A stretch of DNA of 64,000 nt from an uncultured Thermodesulfobacteriota bacterium. Its GTDB lineage: Bacteria > Desulfobacterota > GWC2-55-46 > JADFVP01. Position numbers and translations under genes: made by a program. The stretch covers positions 465-64,464 of the forward strand of contig CAYYUX010000001.1 of assembly GCA_964474975.1 (NCBI GenBank), in the 5' to 3' direction. The notes under the pieces were generated by a model. It was given only the letters and a program-made list of their open reading frames with translations, did no database searches and was not told where the DNA came from. Shown here in pieces: positions 1,526 through 21,139 of this stretch (within the stretch, counting starts at the first letter, position 1; the number at the start of each line of letters is the position of its first letter).

Positions 1526-2791
1526 ATGGGGGAGGTAATAGTAATGCTGCCGGAATCACTTCCCGTGGCAATCCCGCTTGTTGAGTATGTCTTCGGCAGG
1601 GAGGGCGGCAAGGCAGTGGATTTACTGATACTTGAGAAGCAGAGGGAGACCTTTGGAGATCTTATAGGGCAGTATGCGTTCAGAAAGGTATATGTCCTTG
1701 ACGAGGAGTACTACGGCGGCCTGAAAGACCCCGCCTCCCTTGCGTTTATGAGAAATAAGGCGATAAACCCTTACGATACCTCATATTTCCCTGTTAATAC
1801 CTTCAGGGCCAACGCCTTTCTCTTCGGCTCCATCATAGCGGGCGAGGCTCTTGCCGTCAACTCATCGTTATTTAACGTGAGAGAGAGCCTCCCCGAGACA
1901 ACATGCTCCCTTAATGAAGTTAAGATGCCCGATAGCTCTATTCCATGGGCGGCTGAAATCGCTACGATTCGCGCGGTTCTCGCCGAGATTATCCATACCC
2001 TTTCCCCCATGGAGGATACGCTGAAGGTCTCGGGGGAGCGGCCGAACCTCGGCATCCTCAAGGGCTTCGGCCATGACCTTGAGATATTCATGAAGTACGC
2101 ATACGGGATAGGTCCGGCCCGCGGCGCGCGGGTCCTTGATATCGGCGGCGGGCTTGGGTACGGGTCCTATCTACTCTCAAAATTCGCCGAAGAGGTCGTC
2201 TTTCTTGACAGGTCGGCTGAGACCACGGACTTTGTGATGGGAACATGGGCCGCCATCGCGCCGAACCTGAAGGCTGTATGCGGCGAGGCCTCGGATTTAA
2301 AGGGGTCTTACGGGGAGTTTGATACTATTTTTTTAATGGACGTCATAGAGCATGTGGAAGACCCGAAAGGGCTGTTACGGGACGTCAAGTCTCTGCTGAA
2401 GCCCGGCGGCACGCTCGTCCTCAGCACGCCTGAGGAGGATTATTACCCTTACCGGGTATGCCCGGCGGAGCGGCGCGGCGAGGCCGAGGCCGCGCTCATA
2501 GGCGATGCTATCTGGCCGTGGCACATACAGGGCCTCGGAGAGGCGGCTATGATGCCCATGCTCAAGAACTCCGGTTTTGAGGTGATAGAGAAAAGCTATC
2601 TTACCTACGTAAAGGGCCATGAGATAAAGAAAAGGCTTCGTACAGCGAGACAGTGCCAAGACTCTTTCGCCCTTTTCAAGGCGGCTGAGGATATAACAAA
2701 ATGGGATGTCGATGATTTCGGCCTTACAGCCATGCGGGACCCGTGTTTCTCGGCCGCGTCATATAACGTAGTTGCTAAAAAGGAGGCATAG
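1526..2791 (+). CDS. Two-domain protein: about 170-aa N-terminal domain of unknown function fused to a class I SAM-dependent methyltransferase
   Basis: C-terminal half has VLDIGGGLGYGSYLL (motif I), FDTIFLMDVIEHVEDP and LKPGGTLVLSTP. RBS AAGGAGGGG lies 4-5 nt upstream of the ATG at 1526 (alternative ATG at 1544). Confidence 0.65.
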   Translation: MGEVIVMLPESLPVAIPLVEYVFGREGGKAVDLLILEKQRETFGDLIGQYAFRKVYVLDEEYYGGLKDPASLAFMRNKAINPYDTSYFPVNTFRANAFLFGSIIAGEALAVNSSLFNVRESLPETTCSLNEVKMPDSSIPWAAEIATIRAVLAEIIHTLSPMEDTLKVSGERPNLGILKGFGHDLEIFMKYAYGIGPARGARVLDIGGGLGYGSYLLSKFAEEVVFLDRSAETTDFVMGTWAAIAPNLKAVCGEASDLKGSYGEFDTIFLMDVIEHVEDPKGLLRDVKSLLKPGGTLVLSTPEEDYYPYRVCPAERRGEAEAALIGDAIWPWHIQGLGEAAMMPMLKNSGFEVIEKSYLTYVKGHEIKKRLRTARQCQDSFALFKAAEDITKWDVDDFGLTAMRDPCFSAASYNVVAKKEA

Positions 2792-3883
2792 GTGCGGACA
2801 AGGGCGGCCGTGCTGGAAAAAAAGGACGCTCCACTGGTTATAAGGAAGATAGAGGTGGGCCTGCCGGGACCCGATGAGGTCCTTGTGAAGATGGATATGG
2901 CGGGGCTCTGCAGGAGCGACCTTAACGCCATTACAGGGCATACAAGATACAATATGCCCCTTGTCCTCGGTCACGAGGGTGCAGGCACGGTGGTGGATAC
3001 GGGCCGTAATGTCATTGGATTCAAAAGCGGAGACACCGTGGCCCTGAGCTGGGCCGCCTATTGCGGGAGATGCTATTTCTGCGAGCGCGGTGAGTCGCAT
3101 CTCTGTCATACCGTGGCGTGGCCGCGAGGCAGGGGTTTTCTCCCCGATGGGACTACGAGGTTTCGGGGCGGGAAGGCCGAGAAAATATATCACTTTAACG
3201 GCGTATCGTCTTTTAGCGAGTATACCGTTGTACACAAGACGAGTTGTGTGCCCACCCCGAAGGCCCTGCCTCTCTACGTTAGCGCGGCAACGGGGTGTTC
3301 TGTTGTAACGGCCATTGGAGCCGTATTCAGGACTGCCGGGCCATACCTTAAGAGCAACGCCACTGTTATGGTGGTTGGAGGCGGCAGTGTTGGGGCGGCC
3401 CTGTTGCAGGCCCTGAGGCTCAGGGGCGCGGGCAGGATTATCCTCATTGAAAAAGATGAAAAGAAGTGGAAGGCCCTGCCGGCGGATTACTATGCGCCGA
3501 GTATCGTATCTTTTGATATGGAGAGGCATACGTCAGGTATGGGCGTTGATATATGTTTTGACTGCGTGGCCTCAAAGGAGACTATAGAAAGGTCCATGGG
3601 GGCCGTTAGAAGGGGCGGAACGGTTGTAATGGTCGGCGCCCCTCATCCGAACTTGAAGATAGGGCTTAAGGCCGTTGATTTTCATCTTGAGAAGAGGCTC
3701 ATTGGTTCGCTTTACGGCTCATCAAATCCCCAAAGGGATATGCCCATGGTATTTGATTTTTACAAGAGGGGACTGCTTGACCTTAATGCCTCACGCGCGG
3801 AGACATACGGCCTTGGCGATATAAACCTTGCCGTTGAATCTCTTCGGGAGAAGGGCGGTAAATTCATCATAACATTTGATTGA
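2792..3883 (+). CDS. Zn-dependent alcohol dehydrogenase (MDR superfamily), GTG start
   Basis: Catalytic Zn ligands in CRSDL…GHEGAG, structural Zn Cys cluster CGRCYFCERGESHLC, and Rossmann motif VVGGGSVGAALLQA. Start abuts the previous stop (2789-2791 TAG, then GTG). Confidence 0.75.
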   Translation: MRTRAAVLEKKDAPLVIRKIEVGLPGPDEVLVKMDMAGLCRSDLNAITGHTRYNMPLVLGHEGAGTVVDTGRNVIGFKSGDTVALSWAAYCGRCYFCERGESHLCHTVAWPRGRGFLPDGTTRFRGGKAEKIYHFNGVSSFSEYTVVHKTSCVPTPKALPLYVSAATGCSVVTAIGAVFRTAGPYLKSNATVMVVGGGSVGAALLQALRLRGAGRIILIEKDEKKWKALPADYYAPSIVSFDMERHTSGMGVDICFDCVASKETIERSMGAVRRGGTVVMVGAPHPNLKIGLKAVDFHLEKRLIGSLYGSSNPQRDMPMVFDFYKRGLLDLNASRAETYGLGDINLAVESLREKGGKFIITFD

Positions 3884-3943
3884 AAGGCGGAAGCTCCGTC
3901 ATGAGGACGGTTGATGTTTTGTTTAAAAAAAAGGAGGACTCTT

Positions 3944-4636
3944 ATGAGGTTATTTCTCGATACAGCTGATATTAAAGAGATAAAAAAGGCAAAGTCGTGG
4001 GGGGTGTTAAGCGGTATAACGACAAATCCATCTATAATCGCGAGGCAGAAAAGAGATTTTCTCTCCCTTGCGAGAGAGATATGCGAGCTTGTTTATCCCA
4101 ATCCCGTGAGCCTTGAGGTCGTGGAGCGAGAGGCCGGTCCAATGGCGGATCAGGCCAGAAGGCTCGCCGAGATTTCGCGCAACGTCGTGGTTAAGCTTCC
4201 TGCCAATCCCGCCGGCATGGAGGCCTTGAACCTTATCCGCGGAGAGTCCATAAAGACGAACCTTACCCTTATCTTTTCTCCGACGCAGGCCCTGCTTGCC
4301 GCCATGGCCGGGGCTACTTTCATCAGCCCCTTTATAGGCAGGCTTGAGGACAGGGGCTATAACGGGCTCGGACTTATACGTGAGCTTATGGAGGCCTTTT
4401 CGCACCATGATACGGAGACGGAGGTCATCGCCGCGAGCATCCGTGACCCTCATCAGATAGTGGAGATAGCAAGGGCCGGTGTTCAGATAGCCACCGTGCC
4501 CTTTGTAGTGCTTGAGAAGATGCTCCTTAACAATATGACGGATATGGACCTTGAGAAGTTTTTAAAAGACTGGGAGGAGGTGCCGGGTCGTGAGCATGCC
4601 TTTAGAGAAGATATCAGAAAGGCCGCTGGAGCTTAG
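3944..4636 (+). CDS. Transaldolase / fructose-6-phosphate aldolase family (TalC/MipB-like small transaldolase)
   Basis: MRLFLDTADIKEI…SGITTNPSI…VVKLPANPAGMEAL…TLIFSPTQALLAAMAGATFISPFIGRLED are the hallmark blocks of the about 215-aa transaldolase/FSA family. Good RBS (AAGGAGG) upstream of the ATG at 3944. The tool's 3911 start is probably an artefactual extension. Confidence 0.7.
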   Translation: MRLFLDTADIKEIKKAKSWGVLSGITTNPSIIARQKRDFLSLAREICELVYPNPVSLEVVEREAGPMADQARRLAEISRNVVVKLPANPAGMEALNLIRGESIKTNLTLIFSPTQALLAAMAGATFISPFIGRLEDRGYNGLGLIRELMEAFSHHDTETEVIAASIRDPHQIVEIARAGVQIATVPFVVLEKMLLNNMTDMDLEKFLKDWEEVPGREHAFREDIRKAAGA

Positions 4637-5639
4637 GGCGGCCGTATTTAAGGGACCCGGGGAGCTTGGCATAAGGCGATGTAGCTTCGCGGGGATTAAA
4701 AAGAACGAGGTCCTTGTCTCTATAAAGGCATGCGGTATATGCGGGAGCGACCTTAATATTTTTCACAGGGATCCTCCTGTGCCCATGTACTGGGCGGGCC
4801 ATGAGATAAGCGGCGTCGTCGCGGAGCTTGGCCCCGGTGTAAGGGGTCTTAAGCGGGGTGCCCGCGTGTGCCTGTCTCCCCTTGTGCCATGCATGAGGTG
4901 CCGTCCCTGCAGGAGCGGCCGCGATAATCTCTGCGAGAACTCCACTTTTGTTAGTTTTAACCGGCCCGGCGGGTTTGCCGATATGGTGGCCCTGTCTGCC
5001 TCCAATGTCTTTGAGATACCTGAGGGAATGGGTTTTACGGAAGCCGTGCTCGTCGAGCCCTTTGCCGACGCCCTGCACGCCATATCCGTGGCAGGGAGGA
5101 TGGCAGGTAAAAGGGCGCTCGTAATAGGTTGCGGCACCCTGGGGCTGCTTACCGTCAAGGCCCTTTGTCTTGAGGGGGCTTCGTCTGTGAGCGTGCTTGG
5201 CAGATACCCTTACCAGAGAGAACACGCCCTGTCCATGGGGGCGGATAGGGCCATGGACCCGGAAGACGCCGCCTCGGGACTGCGTGACAAGGGACCCTTT
5301 GATGTGGTCTTTGAGACTGCGGGAGGCTTTGGGAGCGACTCCATTACATTGTCCATAGAGGCCCTTGCGGGCAGAGGCATAATGGTCCTATCAGGCGTGC
5401 ACTACAATACGCCGCGCATGAACCTCAAGGACCTTACAGAGAAGGAGATTCAGATAAGGGGCGCTCAGCGTTACAGAAAGAAAGACTTTAATATGGCCCT
5501 TGCCCATTTTGCCTCTGGAAAGGTAGAGGCGCGGGGGCTGATAACCCACAGAGTGAGCCTTGAAGACATTATGGAGGGCTTTGATATCGCCTTCCATAAA
5601 AAGCAGACAAAGGCCGTAAAGGTGGTGGTATGTCCGTGA
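4590..5639 (+). CDS. Zn-dependent alcohol/polyol dehydrogenase (threonine/sorbitol dehydrogenase-like MDR)
   Basis: CGICGSDLNIF…GHEISGVV catalytic Zn site, structural Zn CMRCRPCRSGRDNLC, and nucleotide fold LVIGCGTLGLL. 5' end overlaps the aldolase gene by about 45 nt; exact start is uncertain (ATG 4590 or 4596). Confidence 0.7.
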   Translation: MSMPLEKISERPLELRAAVFKGPGELGIRRCSFAGIKKNEVLVSIKACGICGSDLNIFHRDPPVPMYWAGHEISGVVAELGPGVRGLKRGARVCLSPLVPCMRCRPCRSGRDNLCENSTFVSFNRPGGFADMVALSASNVFEIPEGMGFTEAVLVEPFADALHAISVAGRMAGKRALVIGCGTLGLLTVKALCLEGASSVSVLGRYPYQREHALSMGADRAMDPEDAASGLRDKGPFDVVFETAGGFGSDSITLSIEALAGRGIMVLSGVHYNTPRMNLKDLTEKEIQIRGAQRYRKKDFNMALAHFASGKVEARGLITHRVSLEDIMEGFDIAFHKKQTKAVKVVVCP

Positions 5640-6880
5640 ATGTAGCAGGGAAAAAAATACTTGTAATATCAGGGGGCGTAGAGGCCCTGCCCATCATTGA
5701 GAAGGCAATTGATATGGGCCTTTATGTCCTTGTATCTGACGGCGATATGTCTGCCCCGGGCCTTGCCCTTGCCCATGAGGCAATTATCGCCAGCACATAC
5801 GACGCGGAAAAGACCCTGGAGCTTGCCCGTTCCACGGACCCCAACAGGCGTATAGCGGGCGTTATATCGGCGGCCGCCGATGTGCCCCGAACCGTTGCCC
5901 TCGTGGCCGATGCCCTGGGGCTCCCGGGGCCTTCACCCCGCTCGGCGCTCCTTGCAGGCAACAAGTTTCTTATGAAGATGGCCTTTAAGGATATGGGGCT
6001 GGCCGTGCCGTGGTTTGCCATGATAAACGGCCCTGACGATTTAAAGGCCCTTACACGCGGCTCGGCCAAGGCCTTTGTTGTAAAACCCGTTGACAGCCGG
6101 GGCGCGCGCGGTGTAATTCGGCTTACGAAGGATGTTGACTGCGGATGGGCCTTTTTTGAGGCAAAAAAGAACGCGCCATCAGGCGCTGTAATGGTCGAGG
6201 AATGGATAGACGGGATACAACTCAGCACAGAGTCCGTTGTGGCCGGGGGGACCGTGGCCACACCGGGATTATCTGAGAGAAATTACGAGTATATCGAGAG
6301 GTTCGCCCCATATGTCATAGAAAACGGCGGCGACCTTCCGGCCCGTCTTGAAGAGCAGACACTCAAGGCCCTCAACGAGCTGATACTCGGCGCGGCGCGT
6401 GCCTTTGGCATTGATGACTGGACCATAAAAGGCGATATCGTCTTGAGCGATAAAGGCCCCGTCATCATAGAGGCCGCGCCGAGGCTGAGCGGCGGTTATT
6501 TCTGCACTCACACCATACCCCTCTCATCGGGCGTCGATATTGTCGAGGCGGCCATACTGCTCGCGTTGGGCATAAAAGTATCTGTAGCGGATTACAACCC
6601 CAAATTCACCAAATTCATCTCGCAGAGGTTCTGGTTCCCCGAAGAAGGGCTCGTTAAAGAGGTATGCCGAAAATCGGGCCTTGAGTCCATGGCCGGGCTT
6701 GAGATGATGAGACTGCATGTGAGAGAAGGCGATACCATCTCTCCCATGGTCTCGCATCCGTCCCGGGCCGGGATGGTTATCACATCAGGGCGCTCAAGAG
6801 AGGAGGCCGTGGCCCGGGCAAGCGATGCCATCTCCGCTGTGAAAATAATAACTGAAAAACCCATGAGGATGGCGCGGTGA
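5630..6880 (+). CDS. ATP-grasp domain ligase (carboxylate-amine ligase type)
   Basis: N-terminal pre-ATP-grasp Rossmann-like region (KILVISGG…), central ATP-grasp fold (…AFVVKPVDSRGARGVIRL…MVEEWIDGIQLSTE…) and a C-terminal substrate domain. Start overlaps the upstream stop (ATG…TGA overlap at 5630-5639). Confidence 0.65.
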   Translation: MSVNVAGKKILVISGGVEALPIIEKAIDMGLYVLVSDGDMSAPGLALAHEAIIASTYDAEKTLELARSTDPNRRIAGVISAAADVPRTVALVADALGLPGPSPRSALLAGNKFLMKMAFKDMGLAVPWFAMINGPDDLKALTRGSAKAFVVKPVDSRGARGVIRLTKDVDCGWAFFEAKKNAPSGAVMVEEWIDGIQLSTESVVAGGTVATPGLSERNYEYIERFAPYVIENGGDLPARLEEQTLKALNELILGAARAFGIDDWTIKGDIVLSDKGPVIIEAAPRLSGGYFCTHTIPLSSGVDIVEAAILLALGIKVSVADYNPKFTKFISQRFWFPEEGLVKEVCRKSGLESMAGLEMMRLHVREGDTISPMVSHPSRAGMVITSGRSREEAVARASDAISAVKIITEKPMRMAR

Positions 6881-8478
6881 TGATAAAGAGAATACTCCTT
6901 CTTCAGCCTAATATGAAGATAGCCACCTCGGGCCAGCGCATAGTCTATCCGCCCATGGGTATCCTCTATCTTGCCTCCGTGCTTGAGGTCGAAGGTTACA
7001 CTGTAGCAATACTCGATTGTCAGACAGAGGGCCTCGATAGAGATGCGCCTCTGCGCGGCGGTTATGTGGATGTAGGCATCCCCATGGAAGAGATTGGCGC
7101 GAGGATTTTAAAGTTCAAACCGGACCTTGTCGGCATAAGCTGTAATTTTTCCGTAATGGTCGGCTCCATGAACGAGACGGCAAGACTCGTCAAGGAGCTT
7201 TTGCCGTCTGCCGTAGTGGTGGCGGGAGGCAATCACCCCACTTCCATGGCAGAGGAGGTTATGGAAAACCAGGCCATAGATTTTGTCCTGAAGGGTGAGG
7301 CCGAGCTATCATTTCCCGCCCTTCTTGCCGCCATGGAAGGGGATTGCGGGGGCTGTGAAGACTGCGATTGCGGCAAGGAGAGCAAAAAGAGTAGCGGCAG
7401 TAATGAGGATAATGATAAGGATGTCAGCGAGCCTCTTGCCTATAGTGCCGTGCCGGGCCTTGTCTGGAGAGATGGCGGCGTTGTGGTAAGTAACGCTCAG
7501 GGACCTTTTATTAAAGACCTCGATTCGTTGCCCTTTCCGGCGTGGCATCTTTTTCCATACGAAAAATATTCCAGCTTCTATAAACCCAAAAAAGTCACCT
7601 GGGGTCAGCCGCAGGCCATGCCCACGGTTCTTACAACGCGGGGATGCGCCGGCACATGCGTTTTCTGCTCAGTACACAGGACCATGGGAAGAAAATTCCG
7701 GGCGAGAAAGCTTGACGAGGTCTTTCGTGAGATAAGGTTTCTTGTAGATACATACAAGATAAGAAAACTCATGATAATAGACGACAACTTCACCCATGAC
7801 AGGGCGCGGGCAAAGGAGTTCTGCGATGAGTTCAAGAGGCAGGGCTTTAATATTGAGATACACTTCATGGTTCTTGCCCTCTGGTGCATGGACGAGGAGC
7901 TTATAGATAAACTCGTGGAGATAGGATGCGTCTCAATGGGTTTTGCCATAGAGTCCGGCGTGCAGGACGTGCTTACAAAGGTTGTTAAAAAACCCCTTAA
8001 GCTTACAAGGGCCATGGAGGTCCTTCGCTACGCAAAGAAGCAGGGCGTCTTTCTTACGGGGACCTTTGTCATAGGACTTCCCGGTGAGACTAAAAAAGAC
8101 ATCAGAAGGTCGCTCTACATGGCGAACTACAGCGGTCTCTTTGATAGCAGAGAGATTTATATCGCTACGCCCCTGCCCGGCACGGAGCTCTTCGGCAGGT
8201 GTGAGAGCGAGGGGCTATTCGCCGAGGGCTTCAGCTACGATAGGCTTGAGGTGGTAAAACCCAATATCACGACAGGGGATTTTACCGCAGGTTACATCGA
8301 GACAATAGTCGAAGCCGACAGGACTCATCACCTTATAAAGTCCAACCCTGCACATGCCCCGCATTATATAGCCGACGTTTGGCGGCGAAAGAGGCCCATT
8401 TTCATGAACGTCCTTTTTGAGACATCAGGCATGTTCATAAAATACGATCTACTTAAGATGAAGGAGAGCTATCCGTGA
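6877..8478 (+). CDS. B12 (cobalamin)-binding radical SAM enzyme
   Basis: N-terminal B12-binding domain pattern (ILLLQPN…PPMGILYLASVLEVEGYTVAILDC…GISCNFSV…VVVAGGNHPT), then a radical-SAM cluster motif CAGTCVFC (CxxxCxxC). Contains an unusual Cys/Asp-rich insert GDCGGCEDCDCGKESKKSSGSNEDNDKD. ATGA overlap with the upstream gene. Confidence 0.7.
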   Translation: MMIKRILLLQPNMKIATSGQRIVYPPMGILYLASVLEVEGYTVAILDCQTEGLDRDAPLRGGYVDVGIPMEEIGARILKFKPDLVGISCNFSVMVGSMNETARLVKELLPSAVVVAGGNHPTSMAEEVMENQAIDFVLKGEAELSFPALLAAMEGDCGGCEDCDCGKESKKSSGSNEDNDKDVSEPLAYSAVPGLVWRDGGVVVSNAQGPFIKDLDSLPFPAWHLFPYEKYSSFYKPKKVTWGQPQAMPTVLTTRGCAGTCVFCSVHRTMGRKFRARKLDEVFREIRFLVDTYKIRKLMIIDDNFTHDRARAKEFCDEFKRQGFNIEIHFMVLALWCMDEELIDKLVEIGCVSMGFAIESGVQDVLTKVVKKPLKLTRAMEVLRYAKKQGVFLTGTFVIGLPGETKKDIRRSLYMANYSGLFDSREIYIATPLPGTELFGRCESEGLFAEGFSYDRLEVVKPNITTGDFTAGYIETIVEADRTHHLIKSNPAHAPHYIADVWRRKRPIFMNVLFETSGMFIKYDLLKMKESYP

Positions 8479-8508
8479 TACAGGGCTTTTTATCGGGGGG
8501 ATTATAAG

Positions 8509-10575
8509 ATGGCGGGGTTGTCTCTTTACGCTCTTTTTCACTGCAACCTTGCCTTCTCGCTTATAGGGAGAGAAGAGTTCAGGGCGGTTATCAAGAGGTG
8601 CTATCGTCCGTTGCTTGAGTTAGCCGGGGAGGGGCTTCCCATTGGTATAGAGATGAGCGCATGGACCCTTCGTCAGGTTCATCAACTTGAGCCTGATTTC
8701 ACAAGGAGGCTCAGCGATTTATGGGGGGCGAAGAGGCTGAGTTTCATCGGCTCGGGTTACGCCCAATCCATAATGCCGCTGATACCGGCAGAGGTGAACC
8801 GCTGGAACCTGAGGCTCGGCAATAAGTACTATGAGCAGATACTTGGCAGGGCCCCGAGCATTGCCCTTGTAAACGAGCAGACTTTTTCATCGGGGCTTGT
8901 AGGCCTTTATAAAGAGGCCGGCTACGAGACCATTATCATGGACTGGAATAATTCATGCCGTCATAAGAATTTTTCAAATCAAAGATTGTACTCTCCTCAG
9001 AGGGCCGCGGGAAGGTCGCCCGGTGAGGAGATAGGGCTCCTTTGGTCTCACTCCATCGCCTTTCAGAAGTTCAGTCGGTGCGTTCACGGCGAGTTTTCAC
9101 AAAAAGAATATATGGATTATCTTCTCTCCCATCATGAAGAGGGCGAGGAGAGGGCCTTTGTCGCCTACTCCAACGATGCCGAGGTCTTTGATTTTTGCCC
9201 CGGCAGAGGGGAGTCTCCGCGAGGCGACTTTGAGAGGGTAAGGGAGCTGTTAAAGGGGATAATGGACGAGAAGAGATTCGTCCTCTTAACACCTGAGGAA
9301 ATTTTAAATAAATTCAAGCCAGACCCATCTGCCGGACCCATGAGACTTGAGTCCGTTGAGACCCCCGTGGTCTCCAAGAAGCAGGAGAGGTATAACCCCG
9401 TCAGGTGGTCTGTAACGGGAAGGGACAGCGCCCATATAAACGCGCGGTGTCATACTTTGTATAAAAGGCTTGAGGCAATCTTCAGAGATGGAGGCGTAAA
9501 AGAAAAAGATATATTACGTGAAAAACTCTGCGAGTTCTGGGGCTCTGATTTCAGGACAAATACCTGCGACGACAAGCTCCGGTACTTTAACGAATCCATG
9601 GGGTGGCTGAGTCTTGAGACGGAACGCCTCCTGAGAGAGGCAGGGCTTGATGTGACCGAAGCGCTCCGCCCTTCCGAAGTATTCAGCGTTACAAAAGAGA
9701 GGGCTTCCGCGGGCATGGTCTTATGCGGCGCGGGTCTTTGCAGAGGGCCGTGGCCGGGGCAGTCTGTCAGGGGCTTTAACGCACTTGAGGTGGACGATGA
9801 TAAAAGGCGGGTGACTATCCGCGCACAAGAAGTGGAGCTGACCCTATTAAAAGACAGGGGGCTGGCCCTTTCTTCGGCGTCCTTTCCGGGGATTTCGGAT
9901 AAAGCTCTACTCGGCACCCTCGGCCACGGGTATTTTGATTCCATTGAACTCGGCGCGGATTTTTTTTCCGGCCACCTTATACATACGAGCCGGGACGGGG
10001 TAAAGACTACGGATCTTTGCCCCGCGCCTCACACTATCAGGGAAGATAGCGGCGGGCTGAGTATCTCCTCGGACATCGAGACACCCATAGGCCTCCTTGA
10101 AAAGACTTATCATATTCCGCGCCGCGGGGCGGAATTCTCCCTTACTTACAAGATAAAGGCCCCGGCCCTTCAGGCCTCAAGCCTCCGTCTCGGCATATTT
10201 ACCTTCATGCCCGAGGCATTTGATGTAGATGAGCTTTGGTTTGAAACGGTAAACGGCGGAATGGGGCCTGAGAGGTTTTATCTGAAGGGGCACAGGCTCT
10301 CTCACGACGAGCCCGTGAGCCCGGCCATCTCGGCATCGGGATGCCTCGGAGCCACAGAGGGATGGGTGGCCTTTGGCGATACAGAGAAAAGTCTTATCAT
10401 CAGCTCGGAGAGGCGTTTTGTACACACTGTACCCATGATAAATTACAGGGAATCCGGTGACAAGTTTTTCCTTCGCCTCTATCATTCCGCGGGAGAGCTT
10501 GATGATACCTCGTACTGGCTGTGGCGCGGAAGCAATGAAGTAACATTTATCATAAGGGCCAAGGGTCCGGCGTGA
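8509..10575 (+). CDS. Large (688 aa) protein with an N-terminal glycoside-hydrolase-family-57-like domain; catalytic role uncertain
   Basis: N-terminus 'LYALFHCNLAFSLIGREEFRAVIKRCYRPLLELAGE…IIMDWNN' parallels the GH57 'hNHQPxxNF…FEEAYEKCYxPxLExL…VIVDDYHF' blocks. The His-Gln-Pro signature is replaced by His-Cys-Asn. The remaining about 450 aa are unassigned. Fold similarity was judged by eye only. Confidence 0.4.
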   Translation: MAGLSLYALFHCNLAFSLIGREEFRAVIKRCYRPLLELAGEGLPIGIEMSAWTLRQVHQLEPDFTRRLSDLWGAKRLSFIGSGYAQSIMPLIPAEVNRWNLRLGNKYYEQILGRAPSIALVNEQTFSSGLVGLYKEAGYETIIMDWNNSCRHKNFSNQRLYSPQRAAGRSPGEEIGLLWSHSIAFQKFSRCVHGEFSQKEYMDYLLSHHEEGEERAFVAYSNDAEVFDFCPGRGESPRGDFERVRELLKGIMDEKRFVLLTPEEILNKFKPDPSAGPMRLESVETPVVSKKQERYNPVRWSVTGRDSAHINARCHTLYKRLEAIFRDGGVKEKDILREKLCEFWGSDFRTNTCDDKLRYFNESMGWLSLETERLLREAGLDVTEALRPSEVFSVTKERASAGMVLCGAGLCRGPWPGQSVRGFNALEVDDDKRRVTIRAQEVELTLLKDRGLALSSASFPGISDKALLGTLGHGYFDSIELGADFFSGHLIHTSRDGVKTTDLCPAPHTIREDSGGLSISSDIETPIGLLEKTYHIPRRGAEFSLTYKIKAPALQASSLRLGIFTFMPEAFDVDELWFETVNGGMGPERFYLKGHRLSHDEPVSPAISASGCLGATEGWVAFGDTEKSLIISSERRFVHTVPMINYRESGDKFFLRLYHSAGELDDTSYWLWRGSNEVTFIIRAKGPA

Positions 10576-10599: not shown

Positions 10600-12516
10600 A
10601 TGAGTATATTCGAGAAAAACTACGATGTAATCGCGCAAAAAGACAGTATCCTCGCCGATAGGCTCCGTGCCTTTAGCGGCGAGAGGGCCTCTGTCGAGCG
10701 GGCCGCCAATAAAGAGTTTGTACTGCGCTTCAAGGGCCGTCTCTTTAATAGCGCTTACGGGCCATGGAAGGAGGCATCCCTGCAGGCAGAGGAGATAATG
10801 AACAAAAAAGCGGACTGTGTGGCCCTCTTCGGCCTTGGTTGCGGCTACCTGCTTCGCACCCTTTTGAAGTTGGAGACAAAAAAGATATTTATTTTCGAGC
10901 CTTCCATGGAGATACTTACAGGCGTGCTGGAAAAAATAGACCTTAGCTCTGAGCTGAAGGGGCAGAATGTTTTCCTTGCCAATTATATAGGGCCTTTTGT
11001 CTCATGGATTCAGCGCTTTACCGAGGGCTTCGATAATATCATAGGCTACCATACCATGCCTTACAGATTGACCTTTCCCCATGAGCTAAGGGATTTCATG
11101 GTTAAGATAGAGAACGCCCATACCTCGCAGAAGGTCGGCATAAAGACGGAGATAGATTCAAGGGTGGACTGGCTGAAAAATTATTTTTCCAATCTAGAGT
11201 CATTCTTTACTTATCCCTCAGTAGACGTCCTTACGGAGAGGTTAAAGGGAATTCCCATGATCATCGTAGGCGCGGGGCCGTCTCTCAGTAAAAACGCCGC
11301 CCTCCTCGCGGAAATAAAAGACAAGGCCTTTATAGTATCGGCCATTACGGCCTATAAGAGCCTCTTGAAGTTAGGCGTTGTCCCCCATGCCGTGATAGCC
11401 GGGGAAAAGGTAGACCTTGACGAGTATTTTGACGGCGGCGAGCCCGATAGAGAGATTCGTCTCATCTTATCAGAGGTCTCTCACCCGGCAATGTTCCGTA
11501 GAGAGGCCAGCGGTAAATTTATCTTTTACAGCCCCTATATAGCCCTCAGCCTCGAGCAGGCAAGCCTCTGGGGAAGCTCCTCCTTTGTATCAATAGGAGG
11601 GTCTGTAACTACGGCCATTTTTGACATGGGCGTCAAGTTCGGCTGTGACCCCATTGTTTTTATCGGACAGGACCTTGCCTTTGAGAATGGACATAGTCAC
11701 GCGTCGGGAGGTGTTTATGACGGGCAGAGGGTCGTTATTGATAAAGAAAGGGGGGTTGTTGAGGTAAGAGAACACTATATTTCCGGCCATAAGCGCACTA
11801 TGCGCCACAAGCTTCAGTGGCTTAAGGATATTGAGGGCAAACCTGTTGCGAGTAAATATGACTGGGTTACCTTTCACCAGTGGTTTGAGCGTTATATGAT
11901 TCTTCTGAAAGAGGAATACCCCGATATACGTGTCGTTAACGCCACTGAAGGCGGCGCCTTTATAAAGGGCATGGAGCATAAGCCCCTTAAAGAGGTTATC
12001 TCAAAATATATCCTTGATCCCGAGCCCGTGGAGGATATTCTTGCTTCTGCGGCGGCCATGCGTCCCGAGGTGGATACGGCAGGTCTTGTAGAGGCCTTTA
12101 AGAGACTGGAGCTGAATGTAGCCCTTGTCTCAAAACTTTCATCGCAGATTGTAGCAGAGGCGGAAAAGATGCGGACAGCCTTTCAGATGAAAGGCCTTCG
12201 CACAGAACTTGGCGATAACCTTGGGAAGATAAGAAAGAAGGAGAAAAAACTTTTTAATGCCGCCCGCAAGGTAGCTTTTCTATGGGAGGCCCTTGTGGAG
12301 TACACCTACGACCTTAAGAGCTACCTTAAAGAGGCAGTTGACCGCTCCACGGAAGATCAGTTCAGTAAAGACATCGAGCGTACGATACGCACATACACGG
12401 AGGTGAGAAAGAAATGCGATCTCTTCGCCCCCATGGTGCGTGAGGGCCTTTCGTATGTAAGGCTTCTTCATGAGAGGTCAGCTCAGGACCGGCCCGTAGC
12501 CGTTAATCATAGATAA
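10600..12516 (+). CDS. maf: Motility accessory factor (Maf family, DUF115/MptE-like) - flagellin nonulosonic-acid glycosyltransferase
   Basis: Characteristic Maf N-terminus MSIFEKNYDVIAQKDSILADRLRAF. Central MptE-like domain with the IVGAGPSL motif. About 640 aa in length, located immediately upstream of the flagellin locus. Confidence 0.75.
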   Translation: MSIFEKNYDVIAQKDSILADRLRAFSGERASVERAANKEFVLRFKGRLFNSAYGPWKEASLQAEEIMNKKADCVALFGLGCGYLLRTLLKLETKKIFIFEPSMEILTGVLEKIDLSSELKGQNVFLANYIGPFVSWIQRFTEGFDNIIGYHTMPYRLTFPHELRDFMVKIENAHTSQKVGIKTEIDSRVDWLKNYFSNLESFFTYPSVDVLTERLKGIPMIIVGAGPSLSKNAALLAEIKDKAFIVSAITAYKSLLKLGVVPHAVIAGEKVDLDEYFDGGEPDREIRLILSEVSHPAMFRREASGKFIFYSPYIALSLEQASLWGSSSFVSIGGSVTTAIFDMGVKFGCDPIVFIGQDLAFENGHSHASGGVYDGQRVVIDKERGVVEVREHYISGHKRTMRHKLQWLKDIEGKPVASKYDWVTFHQWFERYMILLKEEYPDIRVVNATEGGAFIKGMEHKPLKEVISKYILDPEPVEDILASAAAMRPEVDTAGLVEAFKRLELNVALVSKLSSQIVAEAEKMRTAFQMKGLRTELGDNLGKIRKKEKKLFNAARKVAFLWEALVEYTYDLKSYLKEAVDRSTEDQFSKDIERTIRTYTEVRKKCDLFAPMVREGLSYVRLLHERSAQDRPVAVNHR

Positions 12517-12691
12517 ATGGAAGCGGAGTCCATCAAGCCCTCCCCGCTGTCCATGAATGAGTTTAAAATTACAATGAAGGAAATCCTTGAAAATCCCGGA
12601 AAACTAAAAATCATGTTCTTATTTTTTTGTCTTCGCTAATTAACGTGGGCATTATTATGTGCTTCCATGGCAGATAAAGAAGGAGCCTGTT

Positions 12692-13297
12692 ATGACGGAT
12701 ATATACCTTGACGATACGAGGCTGGAGATAGGTGGCGCTGACGCCGCATCTACTATCGGCGATATTATTGTGGCTGTGGAAGAGGACCTTAAACCCTTCC
12801 GGCGTTTTATTCAGGAGCTATGGCTCGATGGCTTTAATGCGGGTATCGGATGGAAGGATACCGTGGCCGTCAATGAGCCTTTTGAGCTATATGGAGAGCT
12901 AAAGCTCTTTAGCGGCGATGTAGACCCCATAGTCCTGAAAGGGATTTATACGGTGAGTGAGTATATTGATTTTATTTGTACTCTCATTAACGATACCTCT
13001 TCCGCCCTCAGACGCGGTGCTGGAGAAGTAGACAACCTCCTTGGAGCGATTATCGAGAGTACCGGAGAGGTTATCAGAACCATGGATTCACTCTACAGGT
13101 GCGGTCTATCCTATGAGATAGATATATTCAGAGAAAATCCCATATCCTGTTACGAGGCAATTTTAAGGAATATGTCGGAGCTGAAAGACGCCCGTTTGTC
13201 ACGGGACAATATCCTGCTTGCCGATATACTGCAGTATGAGCTCGGTCCGCTACTGATACAGATGGAGGAAAAGGTCTTTTACCGAAAAGATATGTGA
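12692..13297 (+). CDS. Hypothetical acidic protein (about 200 aa) between maf and fliC
   Basis: Intact ORF with a reasonable RBS (AAGGAG at about 12678) before the ATG at 12692; alternative upstream ATG at 12659. No motif recognised. Sits directly upstream of the fliC sigma-28 promoter. Confidence 0.4.
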   Translation: MTDIYLDDTRLEIGGADAASTIGDIIVAVEEDLKPFRRFIQELWLDGFNAGIGWKDTVAVNEPFELYGELKLFSGDVDPIVLKGIYTVSEYIDFICTLINDTSSALRRGAGEVDNLLGAIIESTGEVIRTMDSLYRCGLSYEIDIFRENPISCYEAILRNMSELKDARLSRDNILLADILQYELGPLLIQMEEKVFYRKDM

Positions 13298-13453: not shown

Positions 13454-14296
13454 ATGGCTTTAATTATCAACACCAACATTGCGTCACTACTCGCGCAACA
13501 GAACATCAGTTCATCGAACGCCCAGTTGAAGATAAGCGTTCAGAGGCTATCATCTGGTCACAGGGTCAACAGCTCTGCTGATGACGCCGCGGGGCTTGCC
13601 AGGGCGGATCAGCTTCGTAGCCAGTCCAGGATGATTCAGGCCGCACAGCGGAACGTCAATGACGGCGTCAGCGCCATGGAAATCAGTGACAAGGCCGCTG
13701 AGCAGGTTACGAACATTATCACAAGGATGGGCGAGCTTGCCGCGAGCGCCTCACAGGGTACTCTCGATAGCAATACAAGAACCTTTTTCAGTGATGAGTA
13801 TGACAAACTGATCAACGAAATAGACAGGATAGCGGGTACAACAGAGTTTGGAGGTTTTAAGCTCCTTAACGGCTCCATAACCTCGCTGACCATGTTTATC
13901 GGGTTCAAAAATTCATCGGATAACCAGTTAAGCGTCAGTCTTGTAGCCCTTACAAGCGCCGGCGCTACAGGTAATGTGGGCCTCAGCCTCTCTGCCGGTG
14001 CTCTCTCAGGTGTAACGGGCGCGTTGAACGCCCTTGACGCCGTAAGCGTAGCGCTCAACAGAGTCAATAGCGCAAGGGCCGTATACGGTGCTACAACGAA
14101 CAGGCTTAACGTTGCGCTTAATAACCTTCAGGTTACATTCACTAACTTCCAGGCCGCTGAATCAAGGGTAAGAGACGCTGACTTTGCCTCTGAGACGGCT
14201 ACCTTTACAAAGAACCAGATAATGGTTCAGGCTGGTATTTCTGTTCTCGCGCAGGCTAATACACTGCCGAGAAATGCGCTACAGCTCTTGAGATAG
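13454..14296 (+). CDS. fliC: Flagellin (short, 280 aa)
   Basis: Canonical N-terminus MALIINTNIASLLAQQN…LSSGHRVNSSADDAAGLA and C-terminus …QAGISVLAQANTLPRNALQLLR. Strong RBS AAGGAGGG upstream. Confidence 0.9.
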   Translation: MALIINTNIASLLAQQNISSSNAQLKISVQRLSSGHRVNSSADDAAGLARADQLRSQSRMIQAAQRNVNDGVSAMEISDKAAEQVTNIITRMGELAASASQGTLDSNTRTFFSDEYDKLINEIDRIAGTTEFGGFKLLNGSITSLTMFIGFKNSSDNQLSVSLVALTSAGATGNVGLSLSAGALSGVTGALNALDAVSVALNRVNSARAVYGATTNRLNVALNNLQVTFTNFQAAESRVRDADFASETATFTKNQIMVQAGISVLAQANTLPRNALQLLR

Positions 14297-14365: not shown

Positions 14366-14440
14366 ATTATGCTGAGCTGTAAACTGTTGGGCCGAGAGGG
14401 GTAAGAGGCGCTTGCCAATTTTTTTTTAATGGAGGACATC

Positions 14441-15766
14441 ATGACAATAACCGCAACTGGCGTAATATCGGGAATTGATTCCAAGGCGATTATTCAGCAA
14501 CTTGTTAGCGTGAGGAGCCTCCCTATAGATCAGCTTGTATCTGACAGGAAAAAACTTGAGAACGTAAACTCCACATACACAACACTCGCCTCCCGTGTCG
14601 AGGACCTTAAGACCGCCGCTGACGCCCTTCGCACTACCTCCGGCTTTGCCAGTTTTACTGCTTCAAGCAGTGATACAACTATAGTTGACGCCACGGCCAG
14701 TACAACGGCCACGGCCAATTCATCTGTTATTGTCGTAAATGCCCTTGCAAAATCACATAAGATAGCCGCCGATGGCGTGGCCGCGGCAACTACAGTCGTA
14801 GCCTCTGCTCCGGGTTCTTTTAATTTTACCGTGGGTTCGGGGACCATGCAGAGCGTGGCCGTTGACGCTACAACAACGGTCACCGGGCTAAGCGATGCCA
14901 TTAACGCCCTTAACGCCGGGGTCTCATCTTCCGTGGTAAACGACGGCACATCCTACCGGCTGGTTCTTACGGCAAAATCAACTGGAACGACTAACGCCGT
15001 AACCATTAACCAAAATGATACTACCCTTGCTTTTAACACTACCCTGCAGGCCGCCCAGGACGCCTCTTTTACCGTAGACGGTCTCGCCGTAACACGATCT
15101 TCCAACACTGTAAGCGATGTGCTGACAGGTGTTACTCTAAACCTTAAGAGCGCCAACGCCTCAGCGCCAGTTACTGTAACCTCTACACGCGATGTGGGGG
15201 AGATAGAAAAAAAGGTAGTGGCTCTTGTAGACAGATACAACGCGGTCATGAGTTATATCAAGAGCAACAACCGTTATAATGTTGATACAAAGTCCGGCGG
15301 CCCCCTATTCGGCGACGCCGTCGCGAGGAGTATATCCGATGAGGTCAGCCGTATTATGACATCTCCCGTAAGCGGCCTACCCTCTACCATGAACAGGCTC
15401 CTGCAGGTAGGAGTTACAAGAGACAGCACAGGAGTCATGTCCCTTGACAGCACAAAGCTCAAGGATGCACTTAATACAAATTACAACGATGTAGTGAATC
15501 TATTCATAGAGGGTACATCGACATCAGGTTTCGGTAAAAGCATATATGACCTTGCCAGCTCCTTAGTCGACAGCGTTGACGGCAGGATTACCAAAAAACA
15601 GGAGGGGCTAACCAGCAACATAGCCTCTATTACAACGCATATAACCGATAAGGAACAGGAAATAGCCGCTTATGAGGCCTCTCTGAGAGTGCGTTTTACT
15701 TTTCTTGAGAGTACTCTCTCCGGGATTAAGGCTCAGGGTAATTTCCTGCATGCCGGCGGCTTTTAA
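14441..15766 (+). CDS. fliD: Flagellar filament cap protein FliD (hook-associated protein 2)
   Basis: N-terminus MTITATGVISGIDSKAIIQQLVSVRSLPIDQL, Thr/Ser/Ala-rich central region and conserved C-terminal block (…LESTLSGIKAQGNFL…). GGAGG RBS 5 nt upstream of the ATG at 14441 (alternative ATG at 14429). Confidence 0.85.
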   Translation: MTITATGVISGIDSKAIIQQLVSVRSLPIDQLVSDRKKLENVNSTYTTLASRVEDLKTAADALRTTSGFASFTASSSDTTIVDATASTTATANSSVIVVNALAKSHKIAADGVAAATTVVASAPGSFNFTVGSGTMQSVAVDATTTVTGLSDAINALNAGVSSSVVNDGTSYRLVLTAKSTGTTNAVTINQNDTTLAFNTTLQAAQDASFTVDGLAVTRSSNTVSDVLTGVTLNLKSANASAPVTVTSTRDVGEIEKKVVALVDRYNAVMSYIKSNNRYNVDTKSGGPLFGDAVARSISDEVSRIMTSPVSGLPSTMNRLLQVGVTRDSTGVMSLDSTKLKDALNTNYNDVVNLFIEGTSTSGFGKSIYDLASSLVDSVDGRITKKQEGLTSNIASITTHITDKEQEIAAYEASLRVRFTFLESTLSGIKAQGNFLHAGGF

Positions 15767-15776
15767 AGGGGGATAA

Positions 15777-16190
15777 ATGAAGGGTATCAAGGCATATCAG
15801 AAGGTTCATGTAATGACATCTGACGGAGTGAGGCTTGTGATAATGCTCTACGAAGGCGTCGTGAAGTTCAACAGGATGGCCGTTCTGGCAATAGAAGATA
15901 ATGATATTGAGAATAGGAGCCGTTATATCAACAGGTCCGTTGCCATTATAAGCGAACTTTGCAGCGCCCTGGATATGGAGAGGGGTAAGGAGATAGCACT
16001 TAATCTCAGGGATCTATATGGCTATTGCCTTGCAAGACTCTCTGAGGCCAATAACAGTAACTCGGCAGAAATTATTGAAGAAGTTACACGTATTTTTATT
16101 GAGGTGAAGGAGGGCTGGGACGCTCTGGCAATATCAGGTGTACAGACAGGTAAACCTCGGCTTGAGGTGGGGGCGCGATATGGGGGCTGA
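15777..16190 (+). CDS. fliS: Flagellin-specific export chaperone FliS
   Basis: About 137 aa; …GIKAYQKV…VRLVIMLYEGVVKFNRMA…YINRSVAIISEL… typical FliS four-helix pattern. Directly follows fliD. Confidence 0.85.
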   Translation: MKGIKAYQKVHVMTSDGVRLVIMLYEGVVKFNRMAVLAIEDNDIENRSRYINRSVAIISELCSALDMERGKEIALNLRDLYGYCLARLSEANNSNSAEIIEEVTRIFIEVKEGWDALAISGVQTGKPRLEVGARYGG

Positions 16191-17173: not shown

Positions 17174-17220
17174 TATGGCGATATATCTCTTCAGTACGTT
17201 GATGGCTTTGCCATGTTATC

Positions 17221-18018: not shown

Positions 18019-18032
18019 CTCGAATCCTCCTC

Positions 18033-20938: not shown

Positions 20939-21093
20939 AGGTCAAGCTTTCGACACCCTTAAGATGACTATCTTATGAGGCAATCCATACTCCACACCCA
21001 TGATTCTGCCAAGGCCTTAAAAAAAGCGCATTAAAGGCTCTGACTCCCCTTTAAACAGGTTTTTTAAACACTCGTGACGCAGGGCTTGCCCTG

Positions 21094-21109: not shown

Positions 21110-21139
21110 TCTCTTTATTACAAGGAGAGGGATCTGTCT

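Follow-up and report, generated by a model that had tools for sequence, protein, structure and literature searches.

A class-B radical-SAM gene with a four-cysteine insert in a predicted flagellin-glycosylation island of uncultured Thermodesulfobacteriota

The radical-SAM gene and its island

The window, a stretch of 64,000 nucleotides from an uncultured Thermodesulfobacteriota bacterium of the sulfate-reducer type, begins inside a predicted flagellin-glycan operon. A radical-SAM gene is flanked there by genes for an ATP-grasp ligase and a GH57-like protein, and Maf, flagellin, FliD, and FliS are encoded downstream. The relevant features are the following:

to 567, + strand: PseG-like gene, cut by the window start (Pfam/NCBIfam)
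564-1514 and 1526-2791, + strand: two class-I SAM methyltransferases (Pfam/NCBIfam)
2792-3883, + strand: Zn-ADH (Pfam/NCBIfam)
3944-4636, + strand: FSA/transaldolase-family aldolase (Pfam/NCBIfam)
4590-5639, + strand: second Zn-ADH (Pfam/NCBIfam)
5630-6880, + strand: ATP-grasp ligase of the L-amino-acid-ligase type; its gene and that of the radical-SAM protein are translationally coupled (PF02655 and PF18603 LAL_C2)
6880-8478, + strand: class-B (B12-binding domain) radical-SAM gene, 532 aa, alternative GTG start at 6877, stop at 8478
6946-7326, + strand: N-terminal Rossmann-type B12-binding domain with a conserved GGNHPT loop (PF02310)
7345-7371, + strand: four-cysteine knot C156-x2-C159-x2-C162-x-C164, the conserved insert core (by Cys conservation)
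7372-7434, + strand: insert tail G165-P185, acidic/lysine-rich and of low complexity, varying in length and sequence among relatives
7645-7668, + strand: CxxxCxxC (C256/C260/C263 in 532-aa numbering), the radical-SAM [4Fe-4S] motif, inside the PF04055 match
8227-8475, + strand: C-terminal helical region, about aa 450-532 (alignment and model)
8509-10575, + strand: GH57-like protein, 688 aa (PF03065, 62.5 bits; PDB 1k1w, E 1.8e-6)
10600-12516, + strand: Maf-type flagellin glycosyltransferase (PF01973, 113.6 bits; PF20157 Maf_flag10_N, 26.9 bits)
13454-14296, + strand: flagellin, the presumed glycan acceptor (PF00669 and PF00700)
14429-15766, + strand: FliD (Pfam match)
15777-16190, + strand: FliS (Pfam match)

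Further upstream, the source contig (locus L004) encodes PseB, PseC, a NeuB/PseI-like synthase, a CMP-transferase, a class-III aminotransferase, and a GFO/IDH/MocA oxidoreductase. PseB (489 bits) exceeds its family cutoff of 408; for PseC (360 bits), NeuB/PseI (357/306 bits), and PseG (115 bits), the best matches each lie under the respective cutoff. CTP_transf_3 is present, and the Maf-type gene scores 129.9 bits against the PseD domain (NF050051), under the cutoff of 670. From the clustering of Pse genes with Maf and flagellin, the region classifies as a predicted Maf-dependent pseudaminic-acid-type flagellin glycosylation island. No GNAT or PseH match was found among the island genes of the source contig, and the PseH N-acetyltransferase may be encoded elsewhere in the genome. 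Genes for cobalamin synthesis or uptake were likewise not found within the window, which speaks against a cobalamin-dependent step.

Translation of the radical-SAM gene likely starts at the ATG at 6880, since this codon shares one base with the ATP-grasp stop codon (TGATG), the N-termini of the homologues all read MIKR/MIKK, and the JGI gene call also comprises 532 aa. The Pfam B12-binding domain is matched at aa 24-150 (78.6 bits vs a cutoff of 32.1) and Radical_SAM (PF04055) at aa 252-411 (73.7 bits vs a cutoff of 29.5), the CxxxCxxC motif is invariant in 111/111 homologues, and the predicted structure is a confident class-B fold with the two-domain layout of solved members. The first-pass annotation had called the protein a class-B radical-SAM enzyme; domains, motif, and fold model confirm this membership, and the protein is predicted to bind cobalamin and a [4Fe-4S] cluster. 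The SPASM/Twitch auxiliary-cluster type was rejected, as the protein has no SPASM Pfam match, its extra cysteines lie at the B12/linker boundary and not C-terminally, and most orthologs do not have them. At the C-terminus, the model places helices at 470-524. The part past about aa 490 (..VWRRKRPIF..ETSxMFxKYDxLKxKExYP) is kept within the ortholog group, and in the alignment paralogs are divergent here, with an 11-residue gap. This part is a candidate substrate-specificity element.

Conservation of the operon

Orthologs of the protein share 57-100% identity and are set apart from the next relatives (at most 37%) by a break in bit score from 686 to 330; all members stem from MAGs of uncultured Thermodesulfobacteriota. 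At every ortholog locus examined (9 distinct loci and the source contig), operon synteny is complete and flagellin lies at most 6 kb from the radical-SAM gene, in agreement with the original assignment of the gene to a Maf-associated flagellin-glycan operon. The radical-SAM protein is the best conserved of the glycan-operon enzymes at locus L001, with 69% identity compared with 45-56% for most others.

A flagellar context common to the paralogs (at most 37% identity) was rejected, as Maf or flagellin is present at 0/70 paralog loci, where no other gene of the operon occurs except occasional methyltransferases. Neighbours of the paralogs are other B12-radical-SAM genes, SAM methyltransferases, glycosyltransferases, and CobD; the nearest paralog (L013, 37% identity) resides within a GT2/GT4/Wzy polysaccharide cluster.

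Homologues of the ATP-grasp ligase, with identities of 44-53%, occur widely across NulO clusters, and the GH57-like gene directly follows the ATP-grasp gene on its 3' side in 40 of the 52 loci with room for it. The ATP-grasp/GH57 pair (+ transketolase or aldolase) is an uncharacterised module that is widespread in pseudaminic-acid-type clusters. A B12-radical-SAM gene occurs in only 5/83 loci, and the present one is a lineage-specific insertion between the ATP-grasp and GH57-like genes. Such enzymes were recruited more than once: at L124, a second, independently acquired B12-radical-SAM gene (32% identity) adjoins an FSA gene, and on the L124 and L157 contigs the cassette contains a B12-radical-SAM gene with no flagellin detected. 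As a lineage-specific addition to a widespread ATP-grasp/GH57 core, the B12 enzyme would place one extra decoration on the sugar and not carry out a core step.

The four-cysteine insert

Between the B12 domain and CxxxCxxC, a Cys/Asp-rich insert had been noted at about nt 7333-7420. It is present as the peptide GDCGGCEDCDCGKESKKSSGSNEDNDKD, G154-D181 (nt 7339-7422), right after the last B12-domain helix and ahead of the hairpin that leads into the radical-SAM core. The corresponding linker segment is 14 residues long in 85/111 homologues and 13-16 residues in 98/111, compared with 44 residues here; long linkers (34-87 residues) are confined to the 12 closest orthologs, which speaks against a linker shared throughout some well-characterised subfamily. 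These 12 cluster representatives, 73-100% identical overall, carry exactly four cysteines each (12/12) with the spacing C-x(2,3,5)-C-x2-C-x-C, and no other of the 111 homologues has two or more cysteines in the segment. Outside the insert, the Cys frequency is 1.7%, which gives a probability of about 1e-5 for at least four Cys in a given 9-mer and of about 5e-3 over the whole protein. The cysteine cluster is not explained by chance.

Most orthologs, including ones with an identical operon, are devoid of the insert. Since these same-operon orthologs manage without it, the insert should not be required for catalysis, and from the alignments it appears dispensable for the core chemistry. The comparison of homologues marks it as a genuine insertion, an accessory that one clade acquired late, where B12 domain and linker meet. 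It sits where the last Rossmann helix ends, a position that fold topology sets apart from the cobalamin face, and it is modelled with a pLDDT of 43-68 and no secondary structure, the tail being disordered.

The insert had been suggested as a possible site for an auxiliary metal or cluster. One half of this proposal is retained: the knot is a probable site for a single metal ion (Zn or Fe), for which the strict conservation of the four cysteines is the sole argument. The other half fares worse, as a catalytic auxiliary cluster is unlikely given the orthologs without insert, the disordered model, and the site away from the cobalamin face. A comparison with solved metal-binding proteins revealed no likeness; BUD13 (E 0.84) was the sole match, a spurious one of low complexity.

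The insert might also be a functionless low-complexity expansion in a surface loop that binds no metal and whose cysteines are kept by shared ancestry. This reading, unlikely although a serious contender, is consistent with the same-operon orthologs without insert, the low pLDDT, the missing resemblance to any solved metal site, and the fast change of the tail in length and sequence; the tails of the 12 insert-bearing proteins are not alignable. However, across all 12 representatives the four cysteines persist amid changes in the intervening and following residues, the first Cys spacing shifts by indels with the Cys still in place, and the Cys codons show synonymous TGC/TGT differences between loci. 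Moreover, an origin by slippage or tandem repetition was rejected, as TRF detects no tandem DNA repeat in 7250-7500 that could have created the insert.

Proposed reaction and comparison with known systems

Curated-family membership was rejected: the radical-SAM protein reaches no NCBIfam cutoff, and every score falls far short. Its best match is the Sden_1168 family (NF038361; 237.3 bits vs a cutoff of 575), against which glycan-cluster paralogs score higher (L013, 345 bits; L124, 273 bits). The AprD4 family (NF033070) is matched by the core only (aa 190-446; 89.1 bits vs a cutoff of 500). Scores for BchE (142), HpnJ (136), ApyD (150), HpnR (78.5), MgmA (79), PhpK (85.5), and TsrM (44.6 bits) compare with cutoffs of 360-750, and the rSAM_ocin_1 family match (109 bits) is far under its cutoff. 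The closest solved structures share at most 24% identity with the protein; AprD4 (PDB 6FD2) is the closest by four methods, MgmA is the second-best structural match, and the B12 domain shows similarity to the cobalamin binders TokK, MgmA, OxsB, and CysS. In full-text literature searches, no paper was found that joins radical SAM/cobalamin with flagellin glycosylation, Pse, or nonulosonic acid, and a 2026 review of B12-radical-SAM enzymes mentions none of flagell-, glycan, and nonulosonic. No characterised counterpart of the enzyme was thus found, in line with the earlier statement.

The scheme considered here assigns the synthesis of a pseudaminic-acid-type nonulosonic acid to PseB, PseC, the NeuB/PseI-like synthase, the CMP-transferase, and the PseG-like protein. 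Judging by domain names only, a side chain would be made by the FSA-type aldolase and the two Zn-dehydrogenases and ligated by the ATP-grasp enzyme. The two class-I methyltransferases may catalyze O/N-methylation, and Maf would move the finished sugar onto flagellin. For its extra decoration, the B12 radical-SAM enzyme would reductively cleave SAM at the CxxxCxxC [4Fe-4S] cluster, yielding a 5'-deoxyadenosyl radical that may take a hydrogen from the sugar or its acyl side chain at an unactivated carbon. Methylcobalamin would then give the methyl group, a C-methylation as in GenK/Fom3, with two SAM converted to 5'-dAdo and SAH. In one clade, the Cys4 insert would add a short knot that holds Zn or Fe, with an acidic, disordered tail behind it. 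We consider the chances about even that the protein is such a class-B tailoring C-methyltransferase of the flagellin-glycan pathway with a dispensable insert that is a probable metal knot.

Characterised class-B enzymes are mostly methyltransferases (PMC9204698, PMC12931638). C-methylation, already put forward in the first-pass annotation, is still the most likely chemistry; it is weakened by the closest solved structure, AprD4, being a non-methylating sugar diol-dehydratase. No sequence feature tested discriminates a methylase from a non-methylating class-B enzyme. Ranked next is a non-methylating radical reaction on a sugar or polyol side chain, which is doubtful but of appreciable weight and draws on the same AprD4 likeness. 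In its lead version, a 1,2-diol would be dehydrated as by AprD4 and the product then reduced by an adjacent dehydrogenase, which amounts to a net deoxygenation; other versions would involve epimerisation or the formation of a C-C bond.

Modification of a protein is improbable. The enzyme would here act on flagellin or some other protein of the filament, C-methylating or otherwise altering one of its residues, cf. Mmp10/MgmA and the RiPP class-B methylases. The weak to moderate ApyD, rSAM_ocin_1, and MgmA matches, the structural rank of MgmA, and the constant vicinity of flagellin point in this direction, yet those three scores are all far under their cutoffs. In addition, the gene sits upstream of Maf, translationally coupled, between ATP-grasp and GH57-like small-molecule enzymes, and related B12-radical-SAMs are found in the cassettes without detected flagellin (L124, L157) and in the polysaccharide cluster (L013). 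There is a similarly small chance for an extended form of the C-methyltransferase reading, in which a C-C modification (e.g. a C-methyl branch) of a CMP-/UDP-linked pseudaminic-acid derivative is combined, in the insert-bearing clade, with a Cys4 knot whose redox-active centre, Fe(Cys)4 or a small Fe-S cluster, would let electrons enter the [4Fe-4S]/cobalamin pair. P-methylation for a phosphonate/phosphinate decoration, a reaction demonstrated in vitro with SD_1168 and PhpK and suggested here by the top-ranking Sden_1168 'P-methyltransferase' family and the PhpK match, is most improbable and was rejected, as the former score is well under its cutoff, PEP mutase and other phosphonate genes are not among the island Pfam matches (window, L004, L001, L002), and SD_1168 itself has no known physiological substrate (PMC9204698).

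The nonulosonic-acid glycans of flagellin vary widely in their chemistry, and they control how the filament assembles, motility, and recognition. To our knowledge, their enzymology has so far been entirely polar (two-electron); tailoring of sugars by B12-radical-SAM enzymes is familiar from antibiotic pathways. If the proposed function is true, radical C-H functionalisation joins protein-glycan biosynthesis, and an undescribed C-methyl or deoxy glycan feature is predicted. A C-C modification, if true, would be the first known B12/radical-SAM step in protein-glycan or nonulosonic-acid biosynthesis. The Cys4 knot offers a natural with/without experiment on an extra metal site in a class-B enzyme.

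Among known systems, AprD4, the radical-SAM 1,2-diol dehydratase of apramycin C3'-deoxygenation, shows sequence and profile likeness to the present protein in the radical-SAM core, to which it is confined. Its N-terminal domain is not alignable by sequence with the present one, which matches PF02310. AprD4 is not known to use cobalamin, whereas the B12-binding domain is matched strongly by the present protein; the AprD4 pathway concerns an aminoglycoside, the present one a flagellin nonulosonate. In a similarity network, SD_1168 shares a broad cluster with Fom3, MoeK5, HpnJ, and GenK (PMC9204698); it is known for P-methylation in vitro only, and the island here is without phosphonate genes. 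The class-B C-methyltransferases GenK, GenD1, and Fom3, compared by analogy and not by sequence, resemble the proposed chemistry in that they methylate sugars or CMP-linked intermediates at an unactivated carbon, and the present operon likewise has a CMP-transferase. Their pathways lead to antibiotics, in contrast to protein glycosylation here. MgmA (9CCB), CysS (9N1B), TsrM (6WTE), and TokK (7KDX) are 18-24% identical to the present protein and act on unrelated substrates (protein Gln, pantetheinyl intermediates, Trp, and carbapenem); none of their sequence alignments reaches into the insert region.

Radical-SAM genes reported close to flagellin-region loci of Campylobacter fetus are of the MoaA/SPASM type and not of the B12 type (PMC6321876). 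The Maf-dependent Pse islands of Campylobacter, Helicobacter, Aeromonas, and Shewanella show the same clustering of PseB, PseC, PseI-like, CMP-transferase, PseG-like, Maf, and flagellin genes; the present island differs from them in having no visible PseH and in its extra aldolase, ADH, ATP-grasp, GH57-like, and class-B radical-SAM genes. The acylated nonulosonate of Treponema denticola is reportedly a precedent for a Pse-type sugar that bears an elaborate N-acyl side chain.

The radical-SAM gene and its flagellin-glycan operon

The plus-strand open reading frame running from GTG 6877 or ATG 6880 to the stop codon at 8478 is real. Translation likely begins at ATG 6880: this codon shares one base with the stop of the upstream ATP-grasp gene (TGATG), all homologues begin with MIKR or MIKK, and the corresponding JGI gene call for this contig gives a protein of 532 aa. 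According to Pfam, residues 24-150 form a B12-binding domain (78.6 bits) and residues 252-411 a Radical_SAM domain (73.7 bits). None of the 111 aligned homologues departs from the CxxxCxxC motif (C256, C260, and C263, counted in the 532-aa protein; nt 7645-7668). Together with the class-B fold of the structure model, these features bear out the cobalamin-type radical-SAM enzyme proposed in the first-pass annotation. The operon genes in the window are tightly packed and all located on the plus strand:

Window start (cut), +, PseG-like gene, first in order
After the PseG-like gene, +, two class-I methyltransferases
After the methyltransferases, +, Zn-ADH
Between the two Zn-ADH genes, +, FSA/transaldolase-family aldolase (TIGR00875, 254.8 bits, above cutoff)
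After the aldolase, +, second Zn-ADH
5630-6880, +, ATP-grasp ligase with LAL_C2 domain
6880-8478, +, radical-SAM gene
8509-10575, +, GH57-like protein
After the GH57-like gene, +, Maf
12659-13297 (JGI call from ~12692), +, DUF8042 protein of ~200 aa between Maf and flagellin, weak TP0873_N match
After the DUF8042 gene, +, flagellin, FliD, FliS

On the source contig (JGI 3300023548 Ga0256727_1000002), genes for another flagellin, CsrA, and FliW lie upstream of the operon, followed by a pseudaminic-acid (Pse) island at 1644-9042 of the source-contig locus L004, upstream of window position 1. The island encodes PseB (489 bits, above cutoff), then PseC, a NeuB/PseI-like synthase and a CMP-transferase. 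Next come a class-III aminotransferase similar to glutamate-1-semialdehyde aminomutase (PRK06209, 424 bits) and a GFO/IDH/MocA oxidoreductase, and last the PseG-like gene that the window start cuts. A PseH-type acetyltransferase was not seen among these island genes. The Pse-island trio seen in L004 recurs in distant loci, e.g. L085. Window positions 16523-64000 form one large motility supercluster with a complete flagellar and chemotaxis gene set:

19538-20938 and 24438-25799, two sigma-54 response-regulator activators
21074-23569, TPR protein, 831 aa
Within 16523-64000, PilZ protein; histidine kinase
Within 16523-64000, FliF-FliG-FliH-FliI-FliJ-FliK-FlgD-FlgE-FliL-FliM-FliN-FliP-FliR-FlhB-FlhA-FlhF-FlhG-FliA run
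Within 16523-64000, HEAT-repeat protein, CheR, CheA, CheB, MotA, MotB, CheW, MCP
Within 16523-64000, minus strand, HDOD protein; PAS/GAF/HD-GYP-type protein, 1089 aa

This region contains no cobalamin genes, and three ORFs of ~200-250 aa in the flagellar cluster (17213-17821, 18000-18749, 32622-33221) match no Pfam family at the thresholds applied.

The operon is kept whole from the methyltransferases to FliS in every ortholog locus examined (L001, identical to L035; L002; L006-L012; L086; and the source contig), in line with the earlier placement of the gene in a Maf-associated flagellin-sugar operon. None of 70 paralog loci harbors its other genes, bar occasional methyltransferases. Among the enzymes of the glycan operon, the radical-SAM protein is the best conserved in the comparison with L001 (69% identity vs 45-56% for most of the others; FSA 67%), with flagellin slightly above it (71%). 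The intact operon, its absence from paralog loci, and this top conservation show the link to a Maf-dependent flagellin glycan pathway to be conserved and under selection. The DUF8042 gene, which lacks a Pfam match in the direct window scan, separates Maf from flagellin in every ortholog locus. The corresponding position in Shewanella is occupied by the gene for GlfM, a Maf specificity factor of 89 aa (bioRxiv 10.1101/2023.12.03.569772); by analogy, the DUF8042 protein may be an adaptor.

Family placement and predicted fold

No curated NCBIfam model reaches its cutoff for the radical-SAM protein. The top score is obtained with the Sden_1168 family (237 bits vs a cutoff of 575), followed by ApyD (150), BchE (142), HpnJ (136), a RiPP C-methylase model (109), and AprD4 (89 bits); no physiological role is established for SD_1168 (PMC9204698). 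The protein belongs to no defined family. A homologue search of 5.8 billion proteins returned ~24 cluster representatives at 57-100% identity, the full-length ones with at least 686 bits, and below them a sharp break, with nothing above 37% identity and scores of 330 bits or less. In a GTDB scan with one genome per species, all eight loci at ≥67% identity stem from MAGs of uncultured Thermodesulfobacteriota or 'Deltaproteobacteria'. By these comparisons, the protein defines a small, lineage-restricted orthologous group.

The closest paralog overall (37% identity) is encoded in Candidatus Omnitrophota (L013 1516-13049), in a GT2/GT4/Wzy polysaccharide cluster with three B12-radical-SAM genes, and reaches 345 bits with the Sden_1168 model; this setting and score suggest that its whole unannotated clade acts on glycans. 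Around the 70 paralog genes, additional B12-radical-SAMs, SAM methyltransferases, and glycosyltransferases are overrepresented. Conservation of the C-terminal segment at window 8350-8475 (~aa 490-532; ..VWRRKRPIF..ETSxMFxKYDxLKxKExYP), which includes 11 residues absent from paralogs, is confined to the ortholog group, making it a possible substrate-specificity element.

The AlphaFold2 model, computed from the alignment of 111 sequences, has high confidence (mean pLDDT 89.8, pTM 0.88) outside residues ~155-185. The best Foldseek matches in the PDB are AprD4 (E 1e-24), TsrM, MgmA, TokK, and CysS, and PDB sequence and profile searches recovered the same matches. In the latter, likeness to AprD4 is confined to the radical-SAM core, whereas similarity to MgmA, TokK, OxsB, and CysS reaches into the B12 domain. 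On the basis of these matches, the protein is a class-B enzyme whose N-terminal domain is predicted to be a genuine corrinoid binder.

The four-cysteine insert

The cysteine-rich peptide quoted in the first-pass annotation is present at G154-D181 (nt 7339-7422). The surrounding segment 150-193 comprises 14 residues in 85 of the 111 homologues and 13-16 in 98, with a single sequence at 20; lengths of 34-87 residues are confined to the 12 closest orthologs (≥73% identity). Each of these 12 carries exactly four cysteines in the segment, spaced C-x2-C-x2-C-x-C (8/12), C-x3-C-x2-C-x-C (2/12), or C-x5-C-x2-C-x-C (2/12), and the rest of the aligned homologues have at most one. The sequence between the cysteines is variable, the Gly/Lys/Asp/Glu/Ser-rich tail behind them changes in length and is unalignable between relatives, and the cysteine codons show synonymous TGC/TGT differences between loci. 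The DNA of this region shows no tandem repeat. Retention of the four cysteines amid these changes indicates selection on them in one sub-clade, compatible with a small putative metal site. Orthologs at 57-69% identity in an identical operon possess a plain 14-residue linker instead, so the insert is dispensable for the enzyme reaction.

In the model, residues ~155-185 lack secondary structure (block-mean pLDDT 43-68). The insert begins directly behind helix 141-154, the last one in the Rossmann-type domain, and ends ahead of a short helix and hairpin (187-204) leading into the radical-SAM barrel; no solved structure was detectably similar to it. In flavodoxin-like B12 domains, cobalamin is located at the C-terminal ends of the strands, and the last helix points away from the cobalamin face. 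From this topology, the insert would lie at the far end of the B12 domain from cobalamin. An auxiliary cluster with a direct catalytic role is therefore unlikely, and a putative structural Zn/Fe knuckle or docking element is more plausible.

The ATP-grasp/GH57 cassette and the proposed chemistry

The ATP-grasp ligase differs from the radical-SAM protein in that its homologues form a continuum at 44-53% identity across many phyla. Among 83 loci with such homologues (L083-L165), a GH57-like gene follows directly 3' in 40 of the 52 with room. A split transketolase is found in 35 of the 83, FSA/transaldolase in 6, a nonulosonate synthase in 28, a CMP-transferase and a PseG-like gene in 24 each, and a class-III aminotransferase in 22. 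As a rule, the pair is accompanied by the split transketolase or, less often, by FSA/transaldolase, plus dehydrogenases and methyltransferases. The pair is a widespread, apparently uncharacterised module of Pse-type pathways; a literature search returned no paper that brings pseudaminic acid together with ATP-grasp and transketolase.

B12-radical-SAM relatives occur in only five of the 83 loci: L086 (a true ortholog), L122, L129, L124 2588-6821 (order FSA, a 32% identical B12-radical-SAM without the insert, SDR, ATP-grasp, GH57), and L157 2266-5649 (two in tandem between methyltransferases). Given this rarity beside the widespread pair, we conclude that the B12 enzyme gene was inserted between the ATP-grasp and GH57 genes in this lineage, as a tailoring step, that the cassette predates it, and that similar B12 enzymes were recruited independently to glycan clusters several times. 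The related contig L111 702-9380+ (flagellin 74% identical), with transketolase, ATP-grasp, GH57, Maf, DUF8042, and flagellin genes and devoid of radical-SAM, FSA, and Zn-ADH genes, represents a natural 'minus' variant.

The pathway product would be a Pse-type nonulosonate, in which the ATP-grasp ligase would acylate the amino group that PseH usually acetylates. The aldolase/dehydrogenase branch would supply the acyl unit, and the two class-I methyltransferases would methylate it. As a precedent for such elaborate sugar-acid decoration, the flagellin nonulosonate of Treponema denticola bears a 2-methoxy-4,5,6-trihydroxy-hexanoyl side chain (PMC13439194). For the radical-SAM enzyme, a 5'-dAdo radical would abstract a hydrogen and methylcobalamin would donate the methyl group, C-methylating an unactivated carbon of the side chain or sugar. 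This reaction, to which we give an even chance, is favored because most characterised class-B enzymes are methylases (PMC9204698, PMC12931638) and the B12 domain is well conserved. The main rival, though rather unlikely, is a diol dehydration of the AprD4 type, after which a neighboring dehydrogenase would reduce the product and leave a deoxy position; in its favor, AprD4 is the closest solved structure, and dehydrogenases flank the gene here and in L124. Modification of the flagellin protein rather than the sugar is improbable, and P-methylation more improbable still.

The earlier view that the enzyme has no characterised counterpart agrees with the missed NCBIfam cutoffs and with the literature: the class-B reviews of 2022 and 2026 include no enzyme from flagellin, protein-glycan, or nonulosonic-acid pathways, and a full-text search found no link between B12-radical-SAM enzymes and flagellin glycans. 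Radical-SAM genes near flagellin-modification loci of Campylobacter fetus are of the MoaA/SPASM type (PMC6321876). The fold and the general idea of radical-SAM tailoring are already familiar, and the organisms are uncultured; new are the orthologous group, its pathway context, and the clade-specific Cys4 accessory. In its proposed action, the enzyme would resemble a class-B tailoring enzyme of sugar pathways such as GenK, GenD1, Fom3, or AprD4.
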